A DNA stretch of 64,000 nt from a virus. The stretch lies in the IMG/VR virus record IMGVR_UViG_3300028025_000090. One strand, written 5' to 3'. Made by a program: the position numbers and the translations under genes. Positions within the stretch are counted from its first letter, which is position 1. Every line of letters starts with the position of its first letter. Under the pieces are notes generated by a model that ran no database searches, was not told the origin of the DNA, and worked only from the letters and a program-made list of their open reading frames with translations. Below are positions 2,964-28,872 of the stretch, piece by piece.

Positions 2964-3242
2964 TCAACTATCTAGGTATTTGTCAATCACCATGGTGAAA
3001 TAATCCGCAAACCAACAAATAGATGATGCGTAAAATCCCCAAAGAGGGATTAGGAAAGGTGTGCCTGACCAGAACATCCCGAAGAAACATCCTACCCAAA
3101 AACCGAGACACATGCAACACTTAAATAATTTTTCAAAGAAATCATTTTTAGATAAATGCTCACGAATAGGATTTAGAATTGATCCGTATTTCAGGATCAG
3201 ACAAGCACCAATTAATACAAAAGATTGAAACCAAAGACTCAT
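2964..3242 (-). CDS. Small membrane protein, DUF1360-like
   Basis: Hydrophobic helices around CCMCLGFWVG (C..C.G.W). Confidence 0.55.
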   Translation of the reverse strand: MSLWFQSFVLIGACLILKYGSILNPIREHLSKNDFFEKLFKCCMCLGFWVGCFFGMFWSGTPFLIPLWGFYASSICWFADYFTMVIDKYLDS

Positions 3243-6785: not shown

Positions 6786-7424
6786 ATGAAAAGATGGGGA
6801 TATCGAAACGAGGAGGAGAAAGAGGAAAACAACTCAAATATACCGAATATCATCATAACATCTGCGAATGAAGAGCAAACCGTTGTTAATAGTGGTATTC
6901 GAGTCATTAATAATAAAATTTTGTTTTATGCTGATATTGATGAAGGGTCTGTTTTGGAATTGAACCGTGTTTTGCTTGAACTGGATTGTAAATTACAGAG
7001 CATTAAAAGCTTTGATGATAATTATGAACCTATTATCCATCTCCACCTTAATACCTTTGGAGGTGTTATTTTTGCAGCATTTTCTACTGTCGATACAATC
7101 CGTAGATTGAAATCCAAAGTCTATACGTATGTTGATGGTAACACCGCATCTGCTGGAACTCTGATTAGTCTGAGTGGTTCTAAAAGATATATGGGACAAC
7201 ATGCTCATTTCCTCATTCACCAATTAAGTTCTGGTGTCTATGGTAAGTTTTCGGAAATGGAGGATGAAATCGCCACATGTACCAAATTGATGAAGGTTCT
7301 GAAAGATTTTTATAAAAAACACACCAAAGTTCCAATGAAAAAATTGGATGAGCTTATGAAGCGAGATATTTGGTTGGATGCTCAAGAATGTCTTGATTAT
7401 GGAATCATCGATGAAATTCTCTAA
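6786..7424 (+). CDS. clpP: ClpP-like serine protease
   Basis: Triad ASAG (Ser), LIHQ (His), RDIWL (Asp); ends YGIIDEIL. Confidence 0.88.
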   Translation: MKRWGYRNEEEKEENNSNIPNIIITSANEEQTVVNSGIRVINNKILFYADIDEGSVLELNRVLLELDCKLQSIKSFDDNYEPIIHLHLNTFGGVIFAAFSTVDTIRRLKSKVYTYVDGNTASAGTLISLSGSKRYMGQHAHFLIHQLSSGVYGKFSEMEDEIATCTKLMKVLKDFYKKHTKVPMKKLDELMKRDIWLDAQECLDYGIIDEIL

Positions 7425-13650: not shown

Positions 13651-15120
13651 TTACAGGTAAGTGCTAACAGAACCAGGAGTAAACGCAGTACCAAGACCTT
13701 TGACAATGATCAGGTGATAATAAAGATTAGCACCGAAGATATTGTTTACGATACCATAACGGGTCATGAGTCCAACGCGAGGAGCGAAATCATTCGGTCC
13801 AATTGTGCGTTGCACCATAATCGGGATGTATGGGCAGTAAATAATACCTGTGTCATAGTATTCAGAACCTTTGTAACCCAACAGAGCATACTCAACACCG
13901 CCACCACCGTTAGGAGGATTGGTGTAGTAGTTATTATCTCTATAGAGTGAAGTGTTCTGAACTTCAGTCCGAGTATCACGATAAACCGTCCAGCGGCTAC
14001 CAACCGTACCAACTTTAGCAATACCTACACCAGCCGTGGAAACAGTTCCATTAACTTCAAAAACTTTGAAGTCAGGAAGCATTTCGAGGATGCTGCAAAC
14101 ACGAGGAGTTGCGATAACAAAGTTAGCAGCACCTCTACGGTTACGAGCAGCCATACGACCACTTTCGATAAGCAAACGTTGATAGAAGGTAAGGTTTCTT
14201 TCAGCAGTCCAACGACCATCCGCACTAACAGGACTCCAGATGGAGAAACCTGCGCCAGCACCAGCATTGAAAGCAGTTTGGATCATACGCATCACAACTT
14301 CACGGTCGATCTCAGCTTGGATCTCATACGACATTGCATTCGTAAGTTCTCCATCGATATCGATACCGTTCATGTTTTTGATGTCTTGTTCCAACTCTAC
14401 ACTCCAACGAGTTGCAAGTCTACGTGTTCCAGCTTCAACAGCAGTTTTGTCAAACTTGAGTTCGATTTGAGGGATTTTACCCGTCAATTCGTAGTTGCTC
14501 AAGAGTTCAGCAATACCACGGTCTTGATCTGCGAATGTCCATTCGGCATGACCCGAAAGGAAACCAGCAGATGTGCCAGTGAAACGTGTGTCCAGAAGTT
14601 GATAACCAAGTTCGTCGTTCGGAAGACCAGTGCTACCTTCGTAGGCACTAGAACCGTTTGAACGGTAGTTAGTTCCGTTCGATCCTGCACTCTTACCGTC
14701 GATATCCATATTGCTAAGGGTATCGCCTTGATAAGCGTAACGAAGAGCGAAAGCAAGACCAACAGGACCGCCCATAGGCTGAACGCCTACGATCTCATTG
14801 GAAATCAATTCAGGGAAAGTGCGTCGAATCATAGGAATCAGAATCTTTGGAAGACGAGCATCACCAGTAGCATAGGAGTCGCTGTTAGCGATACCATTGC
14901 CAATGTTAGTCGTTGCACCAAACACACCACCGCTAGCGGCAGTATTGGATTCTTGAAAGCACCACTGTTCTTGGTTCTCAAGCAGCATAGCGGTAGTCTT
15001 GTAAACGTGTTCGTTCTGGATAGCAGGAATCGAGTTCGAGCTATAGTCCAGCACTTTACGCCATTTAGCGACTGCGCGTTGCATTTTTGAGCCATTTAAA
15101 TCAGTTTGTGGGATATTCAT
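13651..15120 (-). CDS. gp23: Major capsid protein (T4 gp23-like)
   Basis: LIPMIRRTFPELISNEIVGVQPMGGPVGLAFALR; YCPYIP...F.PRVGLMTRYG. Confidence 0.97.
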   Translation of the reverse strand: MNIPQTDLNGSKMQRAVAKWRKVLDYSSNSIPAIQNEHVYKTTAMLLENQEQWCFQESNTAASGGVFGATTNIGNGIANSDSYATGDARLPKILIPMIRRTFPELISNEIVGVQPMGGPVGLAFALRYAYQGDTLSNMDIDGKSAGSNGTNYRSNGSSAYEGSTGLPNDELGYQLLDTRFTGTSAGFLSGHAEWTFADQDRGIAELLSNYELTGKIPQIELKFDKTAVEAGTRRLATRWSVELEQDIKNMNGIDIDGELTNAMSYEIQAEIDREVVMRMIQTAFNAGAGAGFSIWSPVSADGRWTAERNLTFYQRLLIESGRMAARNRRGAANFVIATPRVCSILEMLPDFKVFEVNGTVSTAGVGIAKVGTVGSRWTVYRDTRTEVQNTSLYRDNNYYTNPPNGGGGVEYALLGYKGSEYYDTGIIYCPYIPIMVQRTIGPNDFAPRVGLMTRYGIVNNIFGANLYYHLIIVKGLGTAFTPGSVSTYL

Positions 15121-15182: not shown

Positions 15183-16067
15183 TTATCTTCTGAATTCCAT
15201 CGTTTGAAGGATACTCAGATAAGGATCATTCTCCTCTACATCATTACTTACCTTTTCCGTGATAATTTTTTGATTTTTCACGAAATCTGGCTTATGTTTA
15301 CGGTTTTGGAGAGCTTCTTCCTTGATTACTTCAAGTTGTTTCTTCTCTTGTTTTTCAAAAAGACGCACTGTGTAATCGAAATTTTCTTTGATAAAGGTAA
15401 GAGACTTGTCACCAAGAGCTTTCTTAATGAAGTTCTTTTTAGATTCAGGATACTTGGAAGTCTTACCTTCGAGGAAGAGTTTAACTTGTGTGTTATTTTT
15501 CTCTTCAGTGATAACTTTGAGATTGCTCTTCAAAGAAGCGTTCTCATTACGAAGTTTGTCCAATTCAGTTTTACCTTGAAGAATTGCATCGGAAACGGAT
15601 TCTTTCATGACAGCAGAATCAATTGCAAACACTTTGCGAAGATTCTCCAACACATTCATAGCGGTTTTATTCTTAACTGCTTGCTCAATATCTTTAGCAG
15701 GAATGGATTCATTCAAAAATTCTTCCAAATATGCACTAACAGACTCAGTGAGTTGTTTTTTGAATCTAATCAAATCACCTTGTTGTTCTCTTTCGTATTT
15801 CTTAACAACTTTAACCAATTTGGTGGTCTTATCTCTGTCAAAAGCTTCCATCAATTTTTTCATTTTGATGGTGCGATCTTTATCAAGCGATTCCATGACC
15901 GATCCCAATTTAGCAGCATACACTTCATCCTGTTCAACCAATGCAGCTTCAACTGCAAGATCTACTTTAGCTTCCAATGCTTTTTGGATAGCACTAACGG
16001 ATTCGTCGGAAAGACCGAGACTTTTTTGAACGTCTTCAGAGAAAAGATTCTGTTTGTTTTTCTTCAT
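15183..16067 (-). CDS. gp22: Prohead core scaffold protein (gp22-like)
   Basis: Acidic coiled coil, LTESVSAYLEE, located between gp21 and gp23. Confidence 0.85.
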   Translation of the reverse strand: MKKNKQNLFSEDVQKSLGLSDESVSAIQKALEAKVDLAVEAALVEQDEVYAAKLGSVMESLDKDRTIKMKKLMEAFDRDKTTKLVKVVKKYEREQQGDLIRFKKQLTESVSAYLEEFLNESIPAKDIEQAVKNKTAMNVLENLRKVFAIDSAVMKESVSDAILQGKTELDKLRNENASLKSNLKVITEEKNNTQVKLFLEGKTSKYPESKKNFIKKALGDKSLTFIKENFDYTVRLFEKQEKKQLEVIKEEALQNRKHKPDFVKNQKIITEKVSNDVEENDPYLSILQTMEFRR

Positions 16068-16104: not shown

Positions 16105-16557
16105 TTAGAACAAAGGTTTTTCAATTTCTTGAGAAATTTTCTCTTGAATCTTGTTATTGATGGTATCTTTCAGATATTTATGAGCGTTTGCATGATCATC
16201 AGTCATGATAGCTTCGATAAATTTGATGATAGATGCGGACTCGTTGAGTCCTTCGGGTTTTTTACGATCATAAGAACCTTTACCTTTTTTGGGTTTCTCA
16301 ACTTTAGTTGCTGGTGCAAATCGTTTACGGTCTTCCACTTTAGGTCCTTCGAAAACAGTTTTGCCACCTCCCTGTTTCATTTTTTTAGTCACAGATTGTT
16401 CATCTTCTTCTTTTTCAGTCTTGAGGAATTTTTTAATTTCTTTTTTTGGCATTTCTTTGGCTACTTTTTTAGCTTCACCTGATACACCTTTTTGTCCTTT
16501 TTTGGCTCCCATTACAGCACCAAAAAATTTTTTTTGTTTTTCCGTTTTAGATGGCAT
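16105..16557 (-). CDS. Prohead-core-associated protein: DUF3008-like N-terminus, ArfA-like motif, C-terminal core helix
   Basis: MPSKTEKQKKFFGAVMGAKKG; VEKPKKGKGSYDRK; LNES; IIKFIEAIMTDDHANAHKYLKDTINNKI. Lies between gp21 and gp22. Confidence 0.65.
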   Translation of the reverse strand: MPSKTEKQKKFFGAVMGAKKGQKGVSGEAKKVAKEMPKKEIKKFLKTEKEEDEQSVTKKMKQGGGKTVFEGPKVEDRKRFAPATKVEKPKKGKGSYDRKKPEGLNESASIIKFIEAIMTDDHANAHKYLKDTINNKIQEKISQEIEKPLF

Positions 16558-16565
16558 ATTATTAT

Positions 16566-17231
16566 TTAGATACTATTGATAAATTTTATGATTTGTTGAC
16601 GGAGATACGACTCGATATCATGTTTCGGGAGAGTTTTAATGGTCTTTTCAAAATTTTCATATACTTCTTCAAAAGAACCGTCTTGTTCAACAACGTATGT
16701 TTTACTTTCCAAAATACCATTAACGAATGCTTTTGGATAAGATGGATCTGCAACAGCATCAATAGCTACCAAGTGCATATTTTGAACTAGATTGTAATCA
16801 TTATTTTCCATCAATTGTCCCAATGCACGAGTGGACATACCGACTTTAACGCCATCATTGATAAGCGCACGGAGGATCTGACCAGTAGGTGTTGACAAGA
16901 CTTTCGCTTTACCAACAAAATAATCATTAACTTCAGTCAATTCTGTTACCAAATGGCAAGCTCTCTCCAGATTAACATCAGCACTAGTAGGGTGATTCAA
17001 CTCACCCATCGCTCTACCTGGAAGAACCATCTCATTGATATATCTTTGAACTTCAGTTCTCGTATCATCAAGTTTATACATTCTTTTATTTTTATTCACG
17101 CTATTGCAACCGATGAACGGTCCTTTAACATAAAGATTGGATGTACTGTTTCGATTGGATTGTTCTTCGATAACTTCAAAGTTATCAAACACATCAGGAT
17201 TCTCAGCAATTAATTTAAGTTTCAACGCCAT
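16566..17231 (-). CDS. gp21: Prohead core protease (gp21-like)
   Basis: NKNKRMY, GELNHP, ACH, VGMSTRALG, IDAVADPS. Confidence 0.95.
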   Translation of the reverse strand: MALKLKLIAENPDVFDNFEVIEEQSNRNSTSNLYVKGPFIGCNSVNKNKRMYKLDDTRTEVQRYINEMVLPGRAMGELNHPTSADVNLERACHLVTELTEVNDYFVGKAKVLSTPTGQILRALINDGVKVGMSTRALGQLMENNDYNLVQNMHLVAIDAVADPSYPKAFVNGILESKTYVVEQDGSFEEVYENFEKTIKTLPKHDIESYLRQQIIKFINSI

Positions 17232-17264: not shown

Positions 17265-17726
17265 TTAATTTAATTCTTTTTCTGTAATAATAATAAAATC
17301 CATGCCATGCTTCTTCGCGAATTCTTTGGCAAATGCCCATTTATCACAATTATTCTTCCATGCTACTTGTTCATAAAGCAGATTGGATTTCTTTTTATTT
17401 TTAGTAGCTTTTGGTTCTTGGGTCTGTTTCCAAGGTTTAACCTCTATGAGATATTTTTTAATTTTATCGCCTTCTTTTATTTTTACATAAGCATCAATAA
17501 AATACTTACGATTTTTCCTTTGAACACTATCGAAATAAGGAATAGTAATTTCTTCGCTATTCCATTCCAAAACATTCACATTATTATCTGCCCATCGAAA
17601 CAATTTCAATTCTAAACCAGATCGAAAAATTATATTATCTAATTTACCAATATACTTTTGAGGATTTTTAGGGGCAAAAAATCCTTGTTTAAATCTCGAA
17701 TCTTTTTTTAAAGGTAGATTACCCAT
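17265..17726 (-). CDS. gp4: Head completion protein (gp4-like, TnsA-type nuclease fold)
   Basis: QGFFAPKNPQKY.G, FRSGLE, WNSEEITIPY, LIEVKP, KW..A..FA. Confidence 0.9.
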   Translation of the reverse strand: MGNLPLKKDSRFKQGFFAPKNPQKYIGKLDNIIFRSGLELKLFRWADNNVNVLEWNSEEITIPYFDSVQRKNRKYFIDAYVKIKEGDKIKKYLIEVKPWKQTQEPKATKNKKKSNLLYEQVAWKNNCDKWAFAKEFAKKHGMDFIIITEKELN

Positions 17727-26377: not shown

Positions 26378-27052
26378 ATGGATTTATGGATTTTCCTAAT
26401 GCAGAACGCGCAAACTATTTCAATTGTTATTGGATTGGTAAGCACCTTTTTGGTTTTTTTCAAAAAAATTAAAAAATTTATTATTAAAAAATATGAACAA
26501 CATAAAATTTATAGTAAATCTAAACATGAAATACCAGAAATTTTACAAGAAATTAAATTAGGAATCGGTAATTTAGATACTCGAATGAAGAATGTTGAAT
26601 ATGAAATCTCCCCTAATGGTGGTGGTTCCATGAAAGATTCTCTGAAAATTATCAAAGCAGAAATAGAAGCAATGTTTTGGTTGAACCCAAAACCATCTTT
26701 CCGAACTACTTCCAAAGCAATGAATATTCAAGTTAATGAAGCATATTGTCATTTGTGTGCGACATCATCGGAAGAATTACTTCGTTTGAATTGGAAAAAT
26801 TTCATAGAAGATGAAAGTCAATTGGACGATTACATGCGTAGATGGGAAGAATCTACCGATGCCTTTTCACAATTTGCTGGTAAATTAAAATTTAAAAATT
26901 CTCGTGGAGAATCTATGGGGGAATGGCTAGTAAAAGTTCGCCCTCTCGGATCAATAGAAGAAGGACGGGATTATTTGTGGAACGGTTCAATTTATCCGTT
27001 TGATCAGAAATCAAAAGAATGTGCTAGGAATTTTAATATTCCTCTGAATTAA
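26378..27052 (+). CDS. Membrane-anchored PAS-domain protein
   Basis: One TM helix, basic flank, coiled coil, PNGGGSMKD, then VNEAYCHLCATSSEELLRLNWKNFI (PAS core). Start moved to 26378. Confidence 0.7.
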   Translation: MDLWIFLMQNAQTISIVIGLVSTFLVFFKKIKKFIIKKYEQHKIYSKSKHEIPEILQEIKLGIGNLDTRMKNVEYEISPNGGGSMKDSLKIIKAEIEAMFWLNPKPSFRTTSKAMNIQVNEAYCHLCATSSEELLRLNWKNFIEDESQLDDYMRRWEESTDAFSQFAGKLKFKNSRGESMGEWLVKVRPLGSIEEGRDYLWNGSIYPFDQKSKECARNFNIPLN

Positions 27053-28872
27053 ACTGGTGGTGCTTCTTCTGCTGGAGGTGCTTCTTCTGCTGGAGGTGCT
27101 TCTCCACCGCCCAAATCAGCTTCTTCGCCACCTCCTATAGCGGCTCCACCACCTCCGAAGTCTGGAGGCATACCGCCTCCACCGCCTCCACCGCCACCTA
27201 AGTCGCCGCCTTCTCCTCCCGCAGCACCTTCAGCTTGTTGCGCTGCAAGTTCTTTCCAGTTAGGCCCGTTAGCTTTAATTTGTTCAATTTCGTATAGGAA
27301 CTCTGCTTCGTTTCTCAAGAAGTGACGATTAGCAAGAATATCTGAATCTTTCCAATCCAAATATTTTTTCATGGCAAAGGTTTTGGAAACGAATTCACTG
27401 TTTGTAATACTGGTAAAGGTGTTAATTTTTAGTTCAAGCTTTTGACTTTCTCTCATGTCATAGAAATTCGTCGGAACATTAAATTCCACTTGAATATTAT
27501 CTTCGAAAAGATCGTATTCTTCGAACATTTCTTTAAATTTGAGATGAGTGACAAATGCTCTTTTGATACCTTGAGCAAATCTTTGTTGTTGACGAATGAT
27601 CATCTTCGCAAATTTGAGTTCTTCACGAAGCATTTCTGTTCCATCATTATATCCTGTTTCACTATTCAAACGAGAAGTAGGAGTCTTCAGAGAACGATAA
27701 AGTTTCTTGATGAACCAATCTAGAGGCTCCATATTACCATCTGATTGTTGACCACCAAATGTTTCAACAGTTGTTGCTTCTTGTCCTTGTCTTTTAGCAA
27801 ACCAGAAAGAATCCAAAGTAGATTGTGGTGCATATTTTTTAACGACATCACTTTGATCCAAATCGAAAGTCTTAGTAGACCAATATTGAGATTGTAATTT
27901 TCTCAGATATGCTTCAGCTTGAGGAACTGGCAATCTACCAACATCAACATTGAAAAGGAAACGAAGAGGGGCATGAACCATTCTATGGATAACCACAGAA
28001 TCTTCGATCATCGAAAGCTGTCTGTAAGCTCTACGGCAATTCTCAATGAAAGGAATAATAAAATCTTTTGTTTCATTATATTGTCCACTATTCACATAAA
28101 GAACTTGGTTCTGTTCAAATGGAATATATTCATACCGTTCAACTTTTTTATTATCGATGCTAGAAAAAATAGGCTTCTTGTAAATAAATGCTTTGACTAA
28201 CATCGTCTGGATGTTGTCATAAACAGGATCGAATTGATCAGCAGGAAGATTTTTAATGGCAACGACACCTTGTTTGATGTAATCATCTTTTAGAATAAGT
28301 TCAAAAAAGAGTTCACCTTCAACGAGAAATTGTCGGAAATAATGCCATCCATTATCATCCAAATCCAACATGGAACAGAATTTAGAAAATTCTTTTTGTA
28401 ATTCTTCTTTTTTCTCTGATTCCAAATCAGCATTACGGAAATTAAGAGTTACGATCTCTCCATCTTCATCGACGTTAATAGTTTCGTCACAAATTTCATC
28501 CAAAGCATCTGCCACTTCGGAGTAAGCAGCAATCATACGGTAGTCTCTAAGACGACCTGGTTTTTCCTCTGATGCTTGGGAATACATCAAATCCGTAAAG
28601 GATTTGTCTTGGTAAATAGCAGAAAACGCTGTGTTATTCCAGTCGTTATTAAGAGCTACAGAGTTCTTAGCAATCGCTTCAGGTCTGCGTAACCCGATTT
28701 TTTGGAAATATTTATATTTTGTATTCTTTGCTTCATCAGGAGTTTGCTGAAGAAAATTCCCACGATTCTTCAAATAGGATTGCATATTCCTATCGAAAGT
28801 GGAACCCTTGCCGTCACTTCCTTGGTATTGATTATTTGATGATGGGGTTGTTGAACTTCCGACTCCTGCCAT
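27049..28872 (-). CDS. gp20: Portal protein (gp20-like)
   Basis: QLSMIEDSVVIHRMVHAP..F.VDVG.LP...AE.YL; REELKF; Gly/Pro/Glu-rich tail. Confidence 0.95.
   Translation of the reverse strand: MAGVGSSTTPSSNNQYQGSDGKGSTFDRNMQSYLKNRGNFLQQTPDEAKNTKYKYFQKIGLRRPEAIAKNSVALNNDWNNTAFSAIYQDKSFTDLMYSQASEEKPGRLRDYRMIAAYSEVADALDEICDETINVDEDGEIVTLNFRNADLESEKKEELQKEFSKFCSMLDLDDNGWHYFRQFLVEGELFFELILKDDYIKQGVVAIKNLPADQFDPVYDNIQTMLVKAFIYKKPIFSSIDNKKVERYEYIPFEQNQVLYVNSGQYNETKDFIIPFIENCRRAYRQLSMIEDSVVIHRMVHAPLRFLFNVDVGRLPVPQAEAYLRKLQSQYWSTKTFDLDQSDVVKKYAPQSTLDSFWFAKRQGQEATTVETFGGQQSDGNMEPLDWFIKKLYRSLKTPTSRLNSETGYNDGTEMLREELKFAKMIIRQQQRFAQGIKRAFVTHLKFKEMFEEYDLFEDNIQVEFNVPTNFYDMRESQKLELKINTFTSITNSEFVSKTFAMKKYLDWKDSDILANRHFLRNEAEFLYEIEQIKANGPNWKELAAQQAEGAAGGEGGDLGGGGGGGGGMPPDFGGGGAAIGGGEEADLGGGEAPPAEEAPPAEEAPPV
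27059..27103. repeat. 18-bp coding tandem repeat (2.5 copies) in the portal tail
   Basis: GGTGCTTCTTCTGCTGGA repeats encode EAPPAE. Confidence 0.8.

Follow-up and report, generated by a model that had tools for sequence, protein, structure and literature searches.

What is a piece of a bacterial ribosome-rescue factor doing inside a phage protein of the prohead-core region? The question is raised by gene X, which encodes a 150-aa protein in IMG/VR virus record IMGVR_UViG_3300028025_000090 and lies between the genes for a gp21-type prohead protease and a scaffold-like protein in the position of gp22. The source phage is a T4-like marine myophage with a G+C content of ~35%; our window, meaning the whole stretch of DNA that was analysed, is 64,000 nt long. 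An earlier note, written by a model from this DNA alone, had read X as a prohead core protein with an embedded ArfA-like motif, which head maturation would release as a peptide for injection. The occurrence of an ArfA tail in a head-core protein, just before a conserved protease site, does suggest that a ribosome-directed peptide could be delivered with the phage DNA, and below we set out which steps of such a scheme are well founded and which are tentative. The parts of X are as follows.

16105..16557 including the stop codon (TAA), minus strand: gene X, open reading frame (ORF) for a 150-aa prohead-core-region protein
16414..16557, minus strand: DUF3008-like basic three-helix N-terminal domain, residues 1-48 (Pfam, PHROG, AlphaFold2)
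16375..16413, minus strand: acidic EEDEQS linker, residues 49-61, conserved in alignment A1 and predicted to be disordered (predicted local distance difference test score, pLDDT, 50-70)
16255..16374, minus strand: phage ArfA-like module, residues 62-101 (alignment A2; consensus GK.TF.GP.VK.RK.FAP.TK..K.KKGKGSY.RK)
16258..16308, minus strand: homologue of the ArfA mRNA-tunnel tail, residues 84-100, equivalent to ArfA 27-43, with KGKGS at 91-95 (PF03889, BLASTP, PDB profile search, hhalign)
16237..16248, minus strand: L104-N105-E106|S107, predicted prohead-protease cleavage site, E106 nearly invariant
16108..16239, minus strand: C-terminal helical hairpin, residues 107-150, proposed core anchor and the sole part common to all orthologues (AlphaFold2)

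A homologue of the ArfA tail

ArfA (YhdL) is a cellular back-up system for ribosome rescue in E. coli and other beta- and gammaproteobacteria. The motif noticed at nt 16261-16302 corresponds exactly to V86..K99 of X, and the 12 matches in 14 residues given in the earlier note were recovered by BLASTP with the E. coli ArfA reference sequence taken from NC_000913: VEKxKKGKGSYxRK is identical to ArfA 29-42 at 12/14 positions, within an alignment of X 85-103 to ArfA 28-46 (13/19 identical, E 2e-5). The Pfam ArfA profile (PF03889) places X residues 84-100 on positions 25-41 of its 44 (E 1e-5) and matches 31/40 aligned relatives at E<=0.01. In this profile search, of the kind proposed as a check in the earlier note, X itself stays at 25.4 bits, 0.1 bit below the gathering score of 25.5, which several orthologues pass with 26.1-28.7 bits. 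When a 40-position profile of the module (from A2) was run against 177,635 PDB sequences, all six matches were ArfA (E 0.003). The module profile was needed for this, as whole X, searched against the PDB with phmmer, returned spurious casein kinase matches alone. Finally, hhalign of the phage module against ArfA gave a probability of 95.6% (P 1.2e-8) and is confident only from ArfA R27 to G46, which makes this a homology of the tail and not of the whole factor. On these comparisons of sequence, the X segment is a true homologue of the ArfA mRNA-tunnel tail.

The RF2-contacting part of ArfA is not conserved, as had been suspected: profile positions 1-24 are unmatched, and hhalign has zero confidence upstream of ArfA R27. 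The phage module has its own conserved upstream block (A2). In ArfA, the KGKGS segment binds the empty mRNA channel (PMC6299226); the A site holds residues 21-30 and the mRNA tunnel residues 31-48, and the protein is active when cut at N47 and dead when cut after M40 (PMC5378476).

Conservation was followed position by position in 143 modules. K91 (99%) and R98 (100%) both lie outside the motif by which these modules were selected, S95 (97%) and Y96 (94%) are conserved within the choice of residues that it permits, and at G92 and G94 it leaves no choice. Among the 16 sequences of A2, which were selected by a near-identical motif, G[KRA]G[SA][YF], invariance extends to G92, G94, Y96 and R98, of which only R98 lies outside the selecting motif. 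Conservation that is position-specific in this way favours a specific loop that folds on binding over bulk charge.

A predicted protease site at the junction with the hairpin

The LNE|S junction pointed out in the earlier note is present, as a conserved [LIVFM]-x-E|[SN] site that matches the predicted delta-domain cut of the clade's capsid protein. In those forms of X that bear an arm, the point where it joins the hairpin is nearly always [LIVFM]-x-E with S or N as the next residue. Within 14 residues after the module (GSYxR), the [LIVFM]xE|[SN] motif occurs in 96/129 core-type proteins, most often 6-9 residues beyond the R; among 14-residue windows taken arbitrarily from the same arms only 15.5% contain it, a comparison that, since the sequences are related, measures enrichment and not probability. 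The corresponding site of the capsid protein is:

14947..14958, minus strand: F55-Q56-E57|S58, where the delta domain of the capsid protein is predicted to end, with the same motif as the X junction

Most related capsid proteins have WC[FLIVM]xE at this place, followed by S, A or G, and a few depart from it. We take its position to be that of the T4 gp23 cut, L-T-E|A. The cleavage specificity of T4 gp21 is established. Its substrates comprise gp22, gp67, gp68, the internal proteins, Alt, gp23 and gp24 (PMC9958956). The conserved junction, the capsid motif and the T4 gp21 substrates together give good grounds for expecting a cut at E106, and we consider this cleavage probable.

Such a cut would not release the short ArfA-like peptide that had been envisaged. 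It would free an arm of 106 residues, composed of the DUF3008-like domain, the linker and the module, with 32 K+R and 16 D+E (net charge +16). Upstream of the module there is no conserved cut site with a hydrophobic P3: of the candidates for a second cut there, VFE|G (68-70) is not retained by relatives, and EEDEQS, in the linker, misfits [LIV]xE.

A constant hairpin with exchangeable arms

The division of X into three parts, first read from the letters alone, is borne out by an AlphaFold2 model built on a 40-sequence alignment, and we hold it with high confidence. The model has N-terminal helices (6-19, 27-35 and 38-45, pLDDT 83-88), a disordered stretch (46-103) with the ArfA-like module inside it, and a C-terminal hairpin (104-146, pLDDT ~90). 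As a label for the N-terminus of X, DUF3008-like is weak: 11/40 relatives match DUF3008 (PF11450) at E<=0.01 (best 2.7e-4), while X, with E 0.074 and 13.7 bits, does not reach the gathering score of 24. The N-terminus of X also matches phrog_30268 (E 4.5e-5), and Atlas feature and structure searches lead from this domain to DUF3008-bearing phage clusters. Foldseek of the model against BFVD gave no match at E<=0.001, the top rows being uncharacterised cyanophage proteins and DUF3008 proteins. In other phage clusters of the Atlas a DUF3008-like domain is again N-terminal, and part of the members carry SAM-lyase (22%), zeta-toxin (24%) or DUF6321 domains; virion-associated or effector proteins might use this domain generally as a handle. 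We found no mention of DUF3008 in the literature.

There are 243 homologues of X at E<=0.01, and an IMG/VR scan with the family alignment provided 80 related loci. X lies between gp21-like and gp22-like genes in 80/80 of them, and the order gp21-X-gp22-gp23 is found in every locus that reaches far enough, which confirms the placement of X in the head-morphogenesis block. Across these relatives X ranges from 48 to 225 aa. The one part always present is the C-terminal hairpin of ~44 aa, and the 48-aa forms are this hairpin alone; such a gene, with no cut site, stands between gp21 and gp22 in many relatives (L040, L047, L064, L073 and others, at ~3001-3126). The hairpin-only form is probably the ancestral core protein, to which cargo arms were added later.

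Longer forms of X carry N-terminal Lys-rich modules in many combinations, among them the DUF3008-like domain, the ArfA-like module, a CWKGY...NCV module, GTVPLK repeats, a DYDKDG module and others. Although the protease and scaffold of the nearest record (G001) are near-identical to those of the window, its X starts directly with the ArfA-like module and differs in the second module, which marks the arm as swappable cargo on a constant handle. The ArfA-like module is found in 27/80 loci, that is, in 17/52 distinct X sequences, and by this distribution it is an accessory element. Three near-complete genomes (197-212 kb) have it once each, in X. Five contigs with a module-less X, each <=50% complete, gave no match to a stand-alone copy.

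Some further forms of the arm were noted in passing. The other cargo blocks include (i) the Cys-containing CWKGY...K.VPNCV, (ii) (A)KKDYDKDG..ES...EY.GV..KAIKKA, (iii) GTVPL/GEVPLK repeats and (iv) EEDAEFKKGETSE..KK; the other cargo modules (P0003, P0008, P0098, P0120; L054, L063, L039; P0131, P0147) have no Pfam match. In L013 and L014 (2728-3405) the longest X ORF begins inside the end of the protease gene, and ~80 non-basic residues precede its ArfA-like module; an N-terminal block resembling this one occurs in P0133. In L013/L014 the block may reflect a different start codon or be a further cargo domain. In L035 (19-519) X has a non-basic, probably folded insert of ~70 residues between the ArfA-like module and the hairpin, with a weak match to COMMD1_N (E 0.004).

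The module as a stand-alone phage gene

Searched exhaustively with the module profile, 1.84 billion representatives yielded 70 module proteins at E<=1e-3, and ~30 of these are stand-alone proteins of ~38-100 aa, forms of 38-62 aa among them. They share a 40-residue pattern, in which a short hydrophobic strand is followed by PKVKxRK, xAPPxQxHK and KKGKGSYxRK. Their C-termini lie 3-12 residues past the motif, and they score 17-31 bits with the Pfam ArfA profile. A homologue search with X 62-103 restricted to shorter proteins returned none, a blank that reflects the sensitivity of the tool, since short forms exist. Three of the stand-alone loci were looked up.

L085 6001-6117; L086 6001-6186; L088 6001-6177: stand-alone ArfA-like genes of 38-61 codons, in early/replication regions of three unrelated phage contigs

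The neighbours at these loci are (i) YopX and ThyA; (ii) AAA_25 (here a primase-helicase-type protein) upstream, with terminase and portal downstream; and (iii) AAA_25, DNA methylase, HNH and ParB. From these occurrences we read the ArfA-like module as an autonomous phage unit. One stand-alone protein, P0161 (58 aa), has a hydrophobic C-terminal extension past the basic tail, like full-length E. coli ArfA. To our knowledge, no phage 'ArfA' gene has yet been studied, the name having been given in genome annotations only. Two such names, both given by annotation only, are g10 of Citromicrobium phage RXM (PMC8953757) and gp30 of pelagiphage HTVC027P (PMC12753301).

What the arm may do

We propose that X would be part of the prohead scaffolding core, held there by its C-terminal hairpin (107-150). 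In head maturation the gp21-type protease would cut after L104-N-E106 and free the 106-residue arm, which would carry a complete phage 'mini-Arf' unit of ~40 residues (62-101) whose back half is homologous to the ArfA tail. The new C-terminus would lie 11 residues past KGKGS. As E106 aligns with ArfA position 49, beside the shortest active truncation (N47), the cut would leave the tail ending just past the shortest active length of ArfA, like the ends of the stand-alone forms. The arm would most likely be kept with the DNA in the head, in the manner of the T4 internal proteins, and would enter the next host with the genome; its 106 residues and charge of +16 put it in the size range of the retained and injected T4 internal proteins rather than of the small peptides thought to escape (PMC9958956), which favours retention and probable injection. 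In the host it would dock on ribosomes with an empty mRNA tunnel and either help release or block host rescue or initiation. In the rescue variant, the module's own upstream block would substitute for the RF2-binding part of ArfA.

We infer core membership, retention, injection, ribosome binding and the direction of the effect alike, and the steps differ in likelihood. That the arm docks on ribosomes we put at slightly under an even chance. A core-anchored, protease-released and probably injected arm with its tail in the mRNA tunnel is what we tentatively prefer, and the whole chain, injection included, seems doubtful. Unlikely, in our estimate, is a stronger version in which this clade packs a ribosome-tunnel-binding mini-Arf peptide in the capsid and injects it to act before any phage gene expression. 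Under that version the peptide might be present in hundreds of copies, if it is like T4 gp67 with ~340; it would be activated by C-terminal trimming by the prohead protease, in parallel with the C-terminal truncation of ArfA; and it could either liberate ribosomes that mRNA- or tRNA-cutting defences have stalled or block trans-translation or initiation in the host.

Several observations weigh against the scheme of a core-anchored, injected, ribosome-binding arm. As to the ribosome, the hydrophobic, RF2-activating N-terminus of ArfA (~1-27) is without counterpart, hhalign needing an 8-residue gap there; the K44-H45 motif and the distal basic residues of ArfA are absent from X, whose tail turns acidic after R98-K99-K100; basic tails can bind any nucleic acid; and single residues of the ArfA tail are all individually non-essential (PMC6299226). 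As to the phage family, the ArfA-like module is missing from 53/80 orthologous loci, and in some close relatives, P0004, P0006 and P0033 among them, the KGKGS loop is eroded with the upstream block kept, so that the conservation among orthologues on which the earlier note had staked its idea is only partial. As to the core, the GP67 profile (PF17634) finds nothing in the nearest record, and hhalign to gp67 reaches only P ~1e-3. Finally, fragments of T4 gp67, gp68 and gp22 are thought to exit the prohead (PMC9958956), which means that retention of the X arm is not a given.

The main rival is that the arm serves as an internal DNA-binding or charge-neutralising peptide, or as an aid to core assembly like the basic tail of T4 gp68, and that an ArfA-like loop was reused in it with no ribosome role. 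The net charge of the arm, the comparable basic tail of gp68, the Lys-rich and interchangeable nature of all the alternative cargo modules, and the dispensability of the ArfA-like module in most of the clade all speak for this. We nevertheless find it possible rather than likely, because conservation at K91 and R98 is position-specific beyond charge and lies outside the selection motif, because stand-alone early forms exist for which packing of capsid DNA is impossible as a role, and because ArfA is the sole PDB protein matched.

It is also conceivable, with a fairly low probability, that X acts in the producing cell, either as a late Arf analogue activated by protease trimming, whose fragment would exit the prohead as T4 core peptides do, or as an uncut precursor before assembly, in both cases freeing ribosomes on decaying mRNA. 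The supposed escape of the T4 core fragments is a precedent (PMC9958956), bacterial ArfA is itself activated by loss of a C-terminal part (PMC10107115, PMC5378476), and the stand-alone phage forms necessarily act in the infected cell; but a 106-residue fragment exceeds the small peptides thought to escape, and coupling a cytoplasmic factor to capsid assembly seems wasteful given that stand-alone genes exist. That X resembles ArfA through convergence or composition, in a short stretch rich in Lys and Gly and with neither common ancestry nor common target, is highly improbable: only ~17-19 residues align, X is Lys-rich and its Pfam score lies below the cut-off by that 0.1 bit, but the hhalign P-value, the reciprocal PDB search returning ArfA alone, the orthologues above the gathering score and the 12/14 identities, with G, G, S and Y included, all oppose it.

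If the preferred reading of a core-anchored, injected arm is true, translation joins the host processes hit by pre-packed virion proteins (restriction by IPI, transcription by Alt); the arm would be a tunnel-binding peptide that occurs in nature, of the type proposed as a ribosome-rescue inhibitor, and the hairpin a modular C-terminal capsid-targeting handle with swappable cargo, usable to package foreign cargo. The stronger version, if true, would make it the first virion-delivered translation or ribosome-rescue factor. If the arm binds DNA only, X is a variable core protein of an ordinary kind, of interest for the motif that it borrowed.

Gene neighbourhood

The genes around X, and the portal gene farther along, are:

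16566..17231, minus strand: gp21-type prohead serine protease (PF03420, E 1.5e-28; phrog_207, E 5e-53)
15183..16067, minus strand: scaffold-like protein of 294 aa in the gp22 position, assigned by position and kept in all related loci extending that far
13651..15120, minus strand: gp23-type major capsid protein (PF07068, E 3e-83)
17265..17726, minus strand: TnsA-like endonuclease (PF08722, E 2.9e-20), directly upstream of the protease gene
27049-28872: portal gene (PF07230), adjoined by a tail-sheath stabiliser gene

X starts 8 nt beyond the stop codon of the protease gene. The scaffold-like protein has no Pfam or PHROG match, and the capsid protein is ~32% identical to cyanophage gp23. A search of 50,697 phage records by tblastn and megablast, with X and its region, found no match, a blank likely due to the low-complexity filter together with a lack of cultured relatives.

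The spot directly upstream of the protease gene is occupied by the TnsA-like gene in the window and by an unrelated 200-aa ORF in the nearest record (L002 2324-2926, minus strand); mobile endonuclease genes seem to have a hot spot here, beside gp21. Away from the head block, the window also encodes ribonucleotide reductase, ThyX and a ClpP-like protein, the last by a ClpP-family protease gene at 6786-7424 on the plus strand (PF00574, E 2.5e-32), beside the ribonucleotide reductase genes.

Comparison with known systems

X combines two known kinds of element, a homologue of the ArfA tail and a gp21-processed core protein (the processing being predicted), and it can be compared with each. Among T4 core proteins the nearest are gp67 and gp68: like X they are small proteins of the head block beside gp21 with a charged extension, and X may share with them an amphipathic helix of ~40 residues that starts (I/L)-E-A-I and borders an [LIM]-x-E site. 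The start of the X hairpin, I-I-K-F-I-E-A-I, resembles the N-terminal helix of T4 gp67, M-E-G-L-I-E-A-I, and hhalign of 138 hairpins against 8 gp67 helices gave P 0.0013 over 36 columns with 25% identity. BLASTP between X and gp67 is not significant, the two share no PHROG (gp67 is phrog_1064), and X has no match to the Pfam GP67 profile at E<=10, so to call X 'gp67-like' is suggestive only. The gene order also differs, being 20-67-68-21 in T4 and 21-X-22 here, and the position between 21 and 22 is empty in T4 and in cyanophage P-HM2. The layout of the protein is likewise different: gp67 has an N-terminal helix and an acidic tail, X a C-terminal helix and a basic arm.

The T4 internal proteins IPI and Alt are injected (PMC9958956), and the logic proposed for X is that of IPI-III and Alt, namely that the protein is targeted to the core and trimmed by the prohead protease, and that its basic product stays with the DNA and acts in the next host. 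The targeting element would be different, since IPI-III and Alt use a short N-terminal capsid-targeting sequence and X would use a C-terminal hairpin of 44 residues; the sequences are unrelated. A capsid-targeting sequence of 10-19 residues with L/I-x-E at its end is lacking from the N-terminus of X, which is the DUF3008-like three-helix domain, and the only conserved cut motif of X precedes the C-terminal hairpin.

With ArfA (PF03889; PDB 5MGP, 5MDV, 5U4I, 5H5U, 7OJ0) X shares the tail R/K-V-E-K-x-K-K-G-K-G-S-Y-x-R-K (ArfA 28-42), which in ArfA lies in the empty mRNA tunnel. Both ArfA and the phage module are disordered off the ribosome, and in both the motif would lie near a C-terminus made by truncation, through mRNA cleavage for ArfA and through predicted proteolysis for X. 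X differs in lacking the hydrophobic region that binds and activates RF2, as well as K44-H45 and the distal basic residues. It is moreover phage-borne, its module sitting inside a 150-aa late structural protein that is encoded in the head-gene block and ends at a normal TAA stop, whereas ArfA is a free-standing small protein whose active form comes from a truncated, stop-less mRNA.

ArfT of Francisella and BrfA of Bacillus, of ~40-70 residues, likewise reach into the mRNA channel with a C-terminal stretch that is basic and have an N-terminal part that is specific to the lineage; as they show, 40 residues can suffice for a complete rescue factor (PMC6299226, PMC8012679). They are cellular and free-standing, unlike the X module, and the likeness considered here is that of the basic stretch. 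Further counterparts are the stand-alone metagenomic proteins (P0153-P0183), which resemble X over the whole 40-residue unit and have their C-terminus 3-12 residues past the motif, as in the predicted cleaved arm. The three that were looked up are free genes of early or replication regions, whereas X, encoded in a late head operon, holds the unit as a fusion, with a DUF3008-like domain before it and the hairpin after it.

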